Below, in pieces: positions 3,001-6,000 of a DNA stretch of 35,030 nt (its first letter is position 1; each line of letters begins with the position of its first letter). Position numbers: made by a program. The DNA is taken from contig CAZASP010000001.1 in assembly GCA_964487865.1 (NCBI GenBank), positions 1-35,030 of the forward strand. Reading direction: 5' to 3'. Origin of the DNA: an uncultured Clostridium sp. GTDB taxonomy: Bacteria; Bacillota; Clostridia; TANB77; CAG-508.

Positions 3001-6000
3001 AGTGTATGAGTTATACCCTCTTTCTAAATAATCATCGCAAACTCCAGCTCTTTCAATTATAGGAATTTCCTTATTCCAAATAATTGACTTTTCAGCCATT
3101 TGAATGGTTTTAGACATCTCCTCATTTTGATTATCAAAATACTGAAATATTTTGAAAAAACAACCAAAAATAGCAACTAAAATTGTTGCTATCAGTGTTA
3201 CCCAACCCCAATATTTTTTTATTTTTTCCATAAATTTATCCATACTTTTATTCCTTTCTTTCTCTATTTTTTTACTTTACTTATCCTCATCGGAGGTAGT
3301 TCACTAGGCGTAAAATTAGTATCCTCTCTTTTTCTAGTTGTAACACGTATATATCTTGTTTCTGCACCTGTTGTAAAGTTGTAAGGAAATGTATCATTCC
3401 AATTTCCTGTATCAATTTCTGTATTTTTATCAAAAGCAAAATTTTCGTTATAAGGAAATACAATACAAAAATAATCAGCACTAGCTATAGATACTTGATA
3501 CTCTGTACTTGGCTCTACAGTTATATAAGTAGTTCTTACTCTAGCATTACTAATCATATCCTCACCTGTCCCACCTGCGACACTACCTTGTTCTAAAGTG
3601 AAGTCAAGTAATTTCAACTCATTTATTACATCTAATATTGAATCTATTACATCTAGCCTAGAAAAAATATCATCAATATTTTTTTTTAAATACCAAGTGT
3701 TATAAATTGCTATATTAGCATTCTTGGCTTCGTCTGGTGTTGCCTCATCTGGCAAGTCTTTAAACTCAAAATCTTCATTAAATTCTACTGTTCTCATTTA
3801 AATTTGCAATTTATTTTTGAAAGTTTGTTATTTAATCAATAAAATATCTAATATTAAAGTGTACCCATGTTTCTTTTTCTTTATATAAAGTATTGTTCAC
3901 AAAATCAAAAAGCCAATCTGTCGAAATATTTCCATTTGGACTAATACCTATTCTAATTATGTTGCCGTTTGTTGCAGTTCCAACCGATAGTAGTTCGGAC
4001 GGTATTCTAAACCCAGCAGGAATAGTTCCAATAAGTTGCGAACCACCATTCCACACAAATTTATTAGCCCGACCAGCTACGGTAACTTCATTGCCAATTT
4101 TGCGACATTTTAGAAACTCCCATGTACCACTTACTGGAGTTATATTTATCCAGCCACTATCTTCATTCATATAATCAGTATACGACGGAGTCCAAAGTGG
4201 ATAATCAACAATTCCTGCTTCGATTTTAAAGTTCTTGTATTCGACTGTAACACCTGTACCATCATAATCAGCTTGAGGCACAATTAAAAATGAGCCTCTT
4301 GCATAATCTTTATAATTTTCTCCATCAGGAATTGTTAATTTACAAGAATATCTTGTCCATTTATCGTTATTTGAAGCTAAAAGAGCAATATTAGACGCTA
4401 CTGTTGACGTTGTTCCACCACCAACACCTCTAAAATCAAATCTTAACAAAAGATTCTCATTTCCAACAAGTCCAGTTGTCTTCACATCTACTGACATTGT
4501 AAAATTTTTAATTTTTTCTACTTCTTTAAAATCAAGTATGAATTTGTCTGTAAAAAAAGTATAAACATCAAAATATCCACTTTTTAAAATAGTTATTTTT
4601 CCGTTTTCTCTTTTGGTAAAATCAGGATATCCAGTATCCAATAAATTAATTCCAGTAGCACTATCTTTCAGCAAATTTATACCTTGAGAACCAATTTGTG
4701 GTTTCACTGTTTCAAATTGTTTTTTTAAATTATCAACTTGTTCTTTTAAATAATCAACATTATCTAAAACAATATTTGCGTGCTCTGCATCGTCAGGAAC
4801 ACTTTCATCAGGCAAGTTCTTGTATCTAGTCATTTCTTTATATTCTAAATTAGACAAACTTTCAATTGTTCTTTCTTTCATTTCATTTTTTTATTTAATT
4901 ATTAATCGTGTTATATATTATTTTAATTCAATTTAATTTGCTGATTTTATTTCCAAAAACCGATTGTGAACCAACTAACAAATGCGTCGACGGGTCTTTG
5001 TGCAGAAGACCTGTTATAACCACCAATATCTACAGAAGAAGTACTTTTATTACAATACACAGAATAGTCAGCAAAACCATTGGACGCTGCATTAAATAAA
5101 ATAGAGCAAGAATAAGAAGTATCTTTGTAGGCGGTTAGAAAATCAACTTGAGTTTCAGTTGTGCTAAAACCAGCAACTCCTGCTGGAAATTTAACTGTAC
5201 CCCAGTACAACAATAAACCATTCGCAAATTTAAAATAATTTACTCCAGCCTCATTAGTCCCATACTCCATTTCCGTTTTGCTCTCAATATCATTCGCTTT
5301 ACTTTCAATATTGTTTGCTTTGTCTTCAACATTCTCAATATATTGTTTCAATAATCTAGTATTCTTTAAAGCAATATTTGCGTGCTCTGCATCATCAAGA
5401 GTTGTTTCATCAGGCAGGTCTTTATACTCAAAGTCATCATTGAACTCGTTCATGTAATCAGGCATAATATATAACTCCTTGATTAATAATTAAATTACTA
5501 ACCTCCTTTCGGAAATTAGTTTTAATAAAAGAGAAGAAAGCCTTAAATTGCTCCCTCCTCTCTTTTGTAATTGATAAATGTGCGTAAGCACTCGTTCGTT
5601 CGTTCGTTCGTTCGTTCGTTCGTTCGTTCGTTCGTTCGTTCGTTCGTTAAAATTGTATCATTCTTGACAATCTTGTCAAGATATTTTTTAAATTTAAAAA
5701 TCATATTCTATTACCTCCTATTTCTATTTGATTTTTTAAACTTTTTATGCTTTTCTCTTCCACATATAACAAGTTATATAAGGCTGTAAGATATTATGGG
5801 CAGTTGAACTTCCTGCATATGTCGTGTACATTTCAGAATTCTCTTGCCATACTACATCTGATGGGACATACATAACACTACTCCCACTTGCAGCATTTTT
5901 TGGTTTATAGCTCCAAACAACATTGTGTCTGTGTTTAGGCATTTCAGCTTCTGTTAAAGTATGTTTTTTCTCACCACCTGTTTGTTCTACTGTCTTAAAC

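Follow-up and report, generated by a model that had tools for sequence, protein, structure and literature searches.

The 35,030-base stretch of DNA analysed here (the window; contig CAZASP010000001.1 of an uncultured Clostridium sp.) carries the late region of a siphovirus on its minus strand. A gap of 279 nt separates a tail or baseplate gene of the DUF859 family from the first of three fibre-like paralogs (paralog 1), and this gap holds a perfect (AACG)14 repeat inside a small leader open reading frame (sORF). The locus is a candidate phase-variable switch. Its core features, read in the direction of the minus strand, are listed below.

5714..5719, minus strand: Shine-Dalgarno (SD) sequence AGGAGG of the sORF, read directly, 9 nt before the ATG
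5543..5704, minus strand: sORF of 53 codons, running from the ATG at 5704 to the TAA at 5545..5543, which falls in the hairpin 1 loop (the short state)
5593..5648, minus strand: perfect tetranucleotide repeat (AACG)14, the hypermutable element that would set the sORF frame
5490..5492, minus strand: TAA that ends the intermediate frame (n = 0 mod 3), with the fibre ATG 27 nt further on
5458..5480, minus strand: fibre start region, with SD AAGGAG at 5480..5475, ATG at 5465..5463 and TGA at 5460..5458
4947..5465, minus strand: fibre-like paralog 1 of 172 aa, immediately behind the proposed switch

Tandem Repeats Finder (TRF) calls the repeat over 5592..5648, with period 4, 14.2 copies and 100% matches. 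This is the sole non-trivial microsatellite in the 35,030 bases, the only other perfect run being (AT)5; a tract such as (AACG)14 cannot be there by chance. The TRF call and direct reading agree with the original prediction, which had placed 14 uninterrupted units at 5593..5648 between the DUF859-like gene and the first paralog. The sORF peptide is MIFKFKKYLDKIVKNDTIL(TNER)n. When the sORF frames are simulated for 0-30 AACG units, the stop ends at 5543 for n = 2 mod 3 (14 units, as sequenced), is the TAA at 5492..5490 for n = 0 mod 3 (e.g. 15 units) and is the TGA at 5460..5458 for n = 1 mod 3 (13, 10 or 16 units). This last stop lies within ATGCCTGA, 5 bases past the A of the fibre ATG (5465), with an ORF overlap of 8 nt. 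The simulation reproduces several points claimed earlier: the AGGAGG-led ATG at 5704, the read-through as (TNER)n, the stop at 5543 and, with 15 units, an intermediate TAA. For 13, 10 or 16 units the claimed open frame to a TGA by the fibre start also stands, but the TGA does not overlap the ATG triplet.

The window phage is rare: its fibre and DUF859 proteins are found only in this NCBI contig and in the Logan assembly of SRR14209496, whose contigs break within the repeat. BLAST against GenBank phages, with the locus region and with 25 kb of the window, gave nothing useful; exact-pattern scans were empty for the promoter-repeat junction and hairpin 1 in IMG/VR and for hairpin 1 in JGI metagenomes. 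Relatives were obtained by protein-profile look-ups and shorter motif scans. A profile of the conserved fibre N-terminus gave nine further proteins, whose contigs are rabbit-gut contigs of metagenome-assembled genomes, ENA or Logan assemblies. A profile of the sORF peptide returned mostly unrelated low-complexity proteins, P0013 being the only useful match. Short motif scans of metagenome and IMG/VR contigs supplied further cassettes (repeat, sORF and leader), and 12 cassettes were analysed jointly.

The 12 homologous cassettes lie in low-GC phage contigs (L numbers) at the same position, ahead of small fibre-like genes. All have a short ORF through the repeat and a leader with one or two GA/CU hairpins; an SD and ATG stand at the equivalent place in L003, L013, L098-1, L195-1, L198-1 and L173. 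Seven repeat units occur: AACG, TTAC, ATAC/ACAT, TATG, AGAC, AC and AAGCA. These are 2, 4 or 5 nt long and in no case 3 or 6, so all seven are frame-shifting. AACG repeats recur in L005 (at least 7 units) and L006 (at least 19 units, a 76-nt repeat at the contig end); L003 has (TTAC)12 on a contig spanning the whole tract; and L008, L010 and L004 have (ACAT/ATAC)n at the homologous site. The leader of the window's family, ~120 nt long, is 80% conserved. In L003 the upstream gene, whose stop overlaps the sORF ATG as ATGA, is unrelated to that of the window, which argues that the cassette belongs with the fibre genes and not with the preceding gene.

Tandem double cassettes stand ahead of successive paralogs in L098, L195, L198 and L200. 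Those of L195 are both (AC)n, while L198 combines (ATAC)14 with (AAGCA)10. Arrays of further small MSKSIKLKDN.YLDSS-type paralogs follow in L195, L198 and L200, and two such genes are seen in the stretch of L098 covered. Across cassettes the N-termini of the downstream genes are unrelated (MPD, MAN, MSK, MPK, MGK and MSL).

In nine of ten cases, from independent samples, the contig that carries the first paralog starts in or right after the repeat (L001, L002, L004-L006 and L008-L011). Since short-read assemblies break at the repeat, metagenome assemblies systematically detach the fibre modules of these phages from the remaining genome. The breaks were dropped as a sign of length heterogeneity; the k = 31 of Logan and the k-mer limits of SPAdes suffice to explain them.

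A comparison of repeat number among related phages, proposed with the original prediction, shows counts that differ within near-identical flanks and units that differ as well. L013, L023 and L062 have (TTAC)7, (TTAC)9 and (TTAC)10. Their downstream 500 nt are identical; over the upstream 198 nt, on the sORF side, L023 is 99.5% identical and ungapped, and the L062 flank diverges from L013 further up, inside the preceding gene. L131, L160, L173 and L134 have 8, 10, 13 and at least 14 TTAC units, with flanks 94.6-99.5% identical over 600 nt on each side for the first three. Between L098 and L200, where the flanks are 87% identical, cassette 1 has (AACG)13 versus (AACG)6, and cassette 2 has (TATG)8 (L098 669..700, plus strand) versus (AGAC)5 (L200 11905..11924, given in the reverse-complement index and not on the plus strand). 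In cassette 2 the unit itself turns over at a fixed site. The unit TTAC is also the loop of hairpin 0 (GGC-TTAC-GCC) in several cassettes, which suggests seeding from this hairpin. The agreement of L013-L015 on 7 units was dropped as an indication of stability, since an exact-protein look-up can return 7-unit contigs only; an independent DNA scan of L013-type phages gave 9 and 10 units.

Short, intermediate and overlapping states are each present among natural sequences. The short state is found in the window, L195-1 and both L198 cassettes, and the overlapping state in L013, L062, L160 and L173. All other cassettes are in the intermediate state, apart from leaders whose contigs start in the repeat.

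A neutral microsatellite, or a conserved linker for recombination of fibre modules, would make the ORF and its stops incidental. The leader DNA is very conserved between phages with different flanking genes and could serve module exchange. This explanation is nevertheless very improbable: independent units recur at the same site in many lineages, the long perfect tracts are the only long ones in their genomes, and the frames downstream of the repeat are constrained.

These constraints are seen in the nine leaders of the window's family. The frame that leads to the TGA at +5 is fully open for 113-125 nt (9 of 9), the frame shared with the fibre gene is interrupted essentially once, by a stop at -27 or -24, and the third frame has 5-7 stops, the first of them in the loop of hairpin 1. 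In dinucleotide shuffles, the probability of one frame being open while another has at most one stop is ~0.002-0.005. Indels downstream of hairpin 1 are multiples of 3 at five of five sites; upstream of it they are 1, 2, 4, 7 or 9 nt.

The same three stops are present in 12 of 12 cassettes. The first falls in the hairpin 1 loop or next to it and is part of UUUAA in nearly every case; the second lies between hairpin 2 and the SD, 12-36 nt ahead of the next start; the third is at the next start. This third stop is at +5 (NTGNNTRA) in the window's sequence and in ATGGCTAA, ATGAGTAA, ATGCCTAA, ATGGGTAA, TTGTCTAA and TTGAGTAA, and otherwise at +1 (ATGA). Codon choice at the +5 stop was dropped as independent evidence because paralogs without a cassette also start with ATGAGTAA. 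No conserved leader peptide is claimed: leader substitutions in the window's family show no third-codon-position bias, and the long-frame peptide is not conserved. The long frame of the window is the intermediate frame of L098-2, so it is ribosome transit, not the peptide, that would matter.

Long (AACG)n tracts are also seen inside phage ORFs in IMG/VR (L096, L105, L108, L130, L100, L104 and L118). Within near-identical flanks, L096 has 13 units versus 9 in L105, and L108 has 10 versus 9 in L130. Judged by eye, the sites are a PAPS-reductase-like/ParB-like junction and a position just past the start of a methylase-like gene; the tracts are candidate contingency loci in phage DNA-modification genes.

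The leader RNA 3' of the repeat is predicted to fold strongly. In the window it reaches -43.5 kcal/mol, with z = -6.4 against shuffled sequence, and the leaders fold far better than shuffles (z = -6.4, -5.2 and -3.8). Three hairpins are predicted.

5580..5591, minus strand: hairpin 0, GUGC-UUAC-GCAC, taken from the RNA fold, directly 3' of the repeat
5527..5564, minus strand: hairpin 1, 15 bp of stem (5' arm rich in GA, 3' arm rich in CU), then UUUUAUU
5497..5520, minus strand: hairpin 2, ACUAAUUUCC-GAAA-GGAGGUUAGU, a 10-bp stem that buries the SD-like GAAAGGAGG

Hairpin 0 shows two compensatory pairs relative to the GGC-UUAC-GCC of relatives, and is also found in L013 and L098-2. The loop of hairpin 1, AAUUUAAG (5549..5542), contains the UAA of the short frame; an equivalent of this hairpin, with a stop in or beside the loop, is present in 12 of 12 cassettes. 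In hairpin 2, one-sided changes in relatives preserve pairing, and the core UUCCGAAAGGAGGUUA is common to L098-2, L195, L198 and L200. The 9-mer GAAAGGAGG buried in this hairpin presumably corresponds to STAB-SD, which stabilises the cryIIIA mRNA of Bacillus thuringiensis. Pairing between SD and start codon is predicted in several cassettes, where the probability of an unpaired AUG is 0.00-0.17. A search of the leader against Rfam gave zero families.

Two other explanations make hairpin 1 or 2 a terminator. Either hairpin could act as a premature intrinsic terminator that is blocked by a long-frame ribosome, in which case repeat number would govern transcription into the fibre and lysis genes and not the initiation of translation. 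Attenuation of this type is proven for the (GCAGA)n leader peptides of S. gallolyticus pil1 and pil3 (PMC3894217); in addition, UUUUAUU follows hairpin 1 in the window's family and hairpin 2 is terminator-like in a consensus scan. It is the chief alternative to the preferred reading but unlikely at the present locus, where no frame ends upstream of hairpin 1 and the shortest ends in its loop. A stop inside the hairpin is already ON in Pil1 (PMC3894217); by that rule hairpin 1 could not tell the frames apart. The equivalent hairpins of L013, L173, L098-1 and L198 lack a U-tract behind them, and termination would also silence the downstream holin and endolysin genes. Alternatively, a promoter within the sORF, the repeat, hairpin 0 and hairpin 1 as terminator could form a small RNA gene, with a ~120-nt product and a variable 5' repeat. 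The promoter and the U-tract of hairpin 1 in the window's family fit such a gene, but the zero Rfam matches, the other cassettes without a U-tract or promoter and the open frames that it leaves unexplained render it extremely improbable.

The promoter and an overlapping palindrome are the remaining features of the sORF.

5652..5679, minus strand: sigma-70-type promoter within the sORF, TTGACA-16-TGaTACAAT, 11/12 match plus TG (-35 TTGACA at 5679..5674, TG at 5660..5659, -10 TACAAT at 5657..5652)
5663..5680, minus strand: perfect 8-bp palindrome CTTGACAAgaTTGTCAAG over the -35, operator-like or, on the plus strand, a terminator-like hairpin followed by a T-run

The promoter ends 3 nt from the repeat, and its predicted start site falls within the first repeat units. 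It is one of four 11/12 matches in the window; its score by itself is unexceptional, and it is credible because its position is conserved. Of 10 cassette types, 7 have a promoter adjoining the repeat; its -10 invariably borders on the tract, and its -35 falls in varying sORF frames. The promoter is missing from the L173 group and both L195 cassettes, which do have the repeat, the sORF and the arrangement of three stops. The palindrome is absent in L003 and L013 and was dropped as a component of the mechanism, since it is not conserved.

The original prediction had allowed that the tract might act through the 5' leader of the adjacent promoter. This has a real basis in the conserved promoter that abuts the repeat; speculatively, the promoter could supply the fibre and lysis genes with basal transcription irrespective of frame, or promote repeat instability. 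A related possibility is that the repeat forms the untranslated 5' end of the mRNA, its length tuning stability or ribosome loading with frame irrelevant, as for the AGAT repeat in the uspA2 leader of Moraxella catarrhalis. The promoter, conserved as DNA in different sORF frames, is consistent with this, as are the repeat RNAs, which are G-poor and unstructured. Such an effect leaves unexplained the absence of 3- or 6-nt units, the open frame to the next start and the multiple-of-3 indels, and the promoterless cassettes of the L173 group and L195 also argue against it; it is decidedly improbable.

The preferred reading is that the locus is a simple sequence repeat (SSR) contingency switch, driven by slipped-strand mispairing and acting through an upstream ORF and translational coupling. 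On the sequence evidence, this reading is rather probable. There is good in silico support for a leader ORF that is read across a hypermutable tract and has one coupled frame; we infer the ON state, the translational nature of the effect and the effect on host range.

The sORF would share the transcript of the tail operon, and its translation would begin at a ribosome-binding site of its own. Read-through into the sORF is assumed; no terminator is seen between the DUF859 gene (5745) and the sORF ATG (5704). Slipped-strand mispairing during phage DNA replication would gain or lose AACG units and so move the ribosome among three frames. In the short frame (14 units), with the UAA in the loop of hairpin 1, the hairpins would re-form, no ribosome would proceed to the fibre start and expression would be lowest. 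In the intermediate frame both hairpins would be melted and the stop would lie next to the fibre SD, probably giving partial coupling. In the long frame the UGA, 5 nt inside the fibre ORF, would permit termination-reinitiation and the highest expression of paralog 1; a ribosome arriving in this overlapping frame would open the pairing between SD and start codon. Progeny would differ heritably and reversibly in the dose of paralog 1 relative to the paralogs with the same N-terminal attachment domain. The outcome of a variable fibre dose may be bet-hedging on host range.

Repeat number had been proposed to toggle one or all three paralogs. Relatives favour a switch, but control of all three is unsupported, because the cassette of each relative precedes one gene and some phages carry two in tandem. 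A broader proposal is that low-GC gut siphophages carry modular, mobile cassettes with a repeat in an upstream ORF, each ahead of an individual receptor-binding paralog, at times two to a genome, and each setting its paralog to one of three translation levels by slippage, so that a single lineage would continuously yield a combinatorial mix of virion types; the chances for and against this generalisation appear about equal.

Several points weigh against the proposed switch. The copy number of 14 comes from a single assembly, and no near-identical second genome of the window phage was found in the searches described above. Many of the relatives are homologous and hence not independent tests. 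Start-codon masking varies: the probability that the start codon is unpaired ranges from 0.00 to 0.77 across cassettes, and at 0.46 the fibre start of the window is only half masked. Paralog 1 of the window has a good SD of its own, while the SDs of the sORFs in L098-2/L200-2, L195-2 and L198-2 are weak or absent. The +5 stop is partly inherited, given that paralogs without cassettes begin with the same sequence. Transcripts from the internal promoter would start in the repeat without the sORF start; a share of the mRNA could then not sense the frame, and the conservation of this promoter is not accounted for by the switch model.

A further weak point is the receptor-binding identity of the downstream genes, which is suggested by their position, by shared N-termini with variable C-termini and by sub-threshold or PHROG matches. 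Paralogs 1-3 have ~45 N-terminal residues in common and diverge at their C-termini; the N-terminus of paralog 1 is also common to relatives P0002-P0010. Matches of the three to tail or fibre families are weak; paralog 1 matches Gp53-like_C at 1e-4 and 23.2 bits, just below the Pfam cut-off of 24.9. PDB sequence searches gave zero matches, and the AlphaFold2 single-sequence model of the 172-aa protein has a pLDDT of 47, too poor for a fold search.

Long tetranucleotide tracts are established contingency loci in Haemophilus and Neisseria (lic, mod and others). The cassettes resemble these loci in their long perfect tetranucleotide tracts, copy-number polymorphism in close relatives and three-frame logic. 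In Haemophilus and Neisseria the tract lies within the regulated ORF or its promoter, whereas the cassette tract lies in a separate upstream ORF and would act on the next gene. Two features expected of an SSR locus are present: a long perfect repeat in an ORF, its unit not a multiple of 3, and copy-number polymorphism (in relatives). Translational coupling is classically associated with overlapping stop and start codons (ATGA or TAATG in operons). As in classical coupling, one frame of every cassette, the long one, has its stop close to the next start, 5 nt (or 1 nt) into the following ORF; how far this start is masked varies between cassettes. Unlike classical coupling, that of the cassettes would be conditional, since it is available in one of three frames and chosen by a hypermutable repeat.

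In the Pil1 and Pil3 systems of S. gallolyticus, (GCAGA)n in the leader peptide determines if the ribosome gets as far as a terminator (Danne et al. 2014, PMC3894217). The cassettes share with them a repeat that is not a multiple of 3, in a leader ORF with its own ribosome-binding site, ahead of surface-structure genes in a Firmicute (PMC3894217). In both, copy number shifts the leader-peptide stop relative to a hairpin, and the signal would be the path of the ribosome and not the peptide. Pil1 differs in having a mapped start site upstream of the leader ORF, one proven terminator and a transcriptional read-out; one frame stops well before the terminator (OFF) and two reach it (ON) (PMC3894217). 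In the cassettes, by contrast, all frames reach hairpin 1 and there are three graded ends, one of them overlapping the next start codon. In the window the only promoter-like site is inside the sORF, and the cassettes are phage-borne, with up to two per genome and many repeat units. The cassettes are not assigned to the Pil1-type attenuators, as there is no stop before hairpin 1, the U-tract is limited to one family and a frame overlaps the next start.

Among phages, polyG tracts are reported in receptor-binding genes of Campylobacter phages (Sorensen et al., as cited in PMC11868660 and PMC10877375). According to these citing papers, this is phage-encoded, repeat-mediated phase variation of a receptor-binding protein, as proposed here; the tracts described there are homopolymers in the receptor-binding ORF of Gram-negative myophages, without an upstream ORF, coupling or structured leader. 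T2, T4 and other coliphages have homopolymer contingency loci (Gomez, Barrick and Waters 2025 preprint, PMC12633550), which are likewise slippage-prone phage tracts for bet-hedging. These are short homopolymers (at least 6 nt) in coding genes and are under-represented in tail-fibre genes; multi-base repeats and leader ORFs are not described (PMC12633550). As represented in these sources, repeat-mediated phase variation in phages so far comprises one experimental system, the Campylobacter polyG tracts, plus the homopolymer preprint (PMC12633550).

The components are known singly: phase variation by repeats, repeat switches in leader peptides and translational coupling. Their arrangement at fibre genes is undescribed in the literature searched. 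These searches, which left most subscription journals outside, turned up no account of an upstream ORF that bears a repeat and is coupled to fibre genes of a phage, in keeping with the original prediction. Variation in phage host range is usually attributed to mutation, recombination, diversity-generating retroelements and invertible fibre segments. If the proposed switch is real, host range would be phase-varied by the phage itself through something other than diversity-generating retroelements, invertible fibre segments or homopolymers inside ORFs, and phages of gut Firmicutes would have a new, widespread route to bet-hedging on host range. It would account for short-read assemblies breaking systematically ahead of fibre genes and provide a simple sequence signature for locating such switches in viromes. 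It would also offer a compact three-level stochastic switch for engineering, and would take the Pil1 principle of a leader-peptide repeat beyond a single streptococcal operon to a whole class of mobile elements.

The other genes of the late region, all on the minus strand, are listed below; the remainder of the window consists of head, portal, terminase and recombination genes.

9948..12647, minus strand: tape measure gene
Late region of the window, minus strand: 715-aa tail protein
5745..7457, minus strand: tail or baseplate gene, 570 aa (DUF859 PF05895 1e-32, Gp10_C PF21939 1e-28, PHROG tail protein)
3832..4881, minus strand: fibre-like paralog 2, 349 aa, PHROG minor tail protein, with N-terminal similarity and no cassette of its own
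3264..3797, minus strand: fibre-like paralog 3, 177 aa, PHROG tail protein, with N-terminal similarity and no cassette of its own
After the three paralogs, minus strand: small ORF and CHAP/PG-binding endolysin

Downstream of the endolysin, a SocA/Panacea antitoxin-domain protein (1163..1711, minus strand; PF13274 1e-13) overlaps a 224-aa ORF without a family match (499..1173). The region 499..1711 (minus strand) may encode a PanA-type toxin-antitoxin pair. Beside the terminase, a 206-aa protein (24469..25089, minus strand) has weak PHROG matches to head maturation protease and ADP-ribosyltransferase toxin. In the relative L008, a 65-aa gene at 2735..2932 contains an Acb2/Tad1-hairpin domain (PF24729, an anti-CBASS/Thoeris sponge family); it is located between the fibre-like genes and an M15 endolysin.

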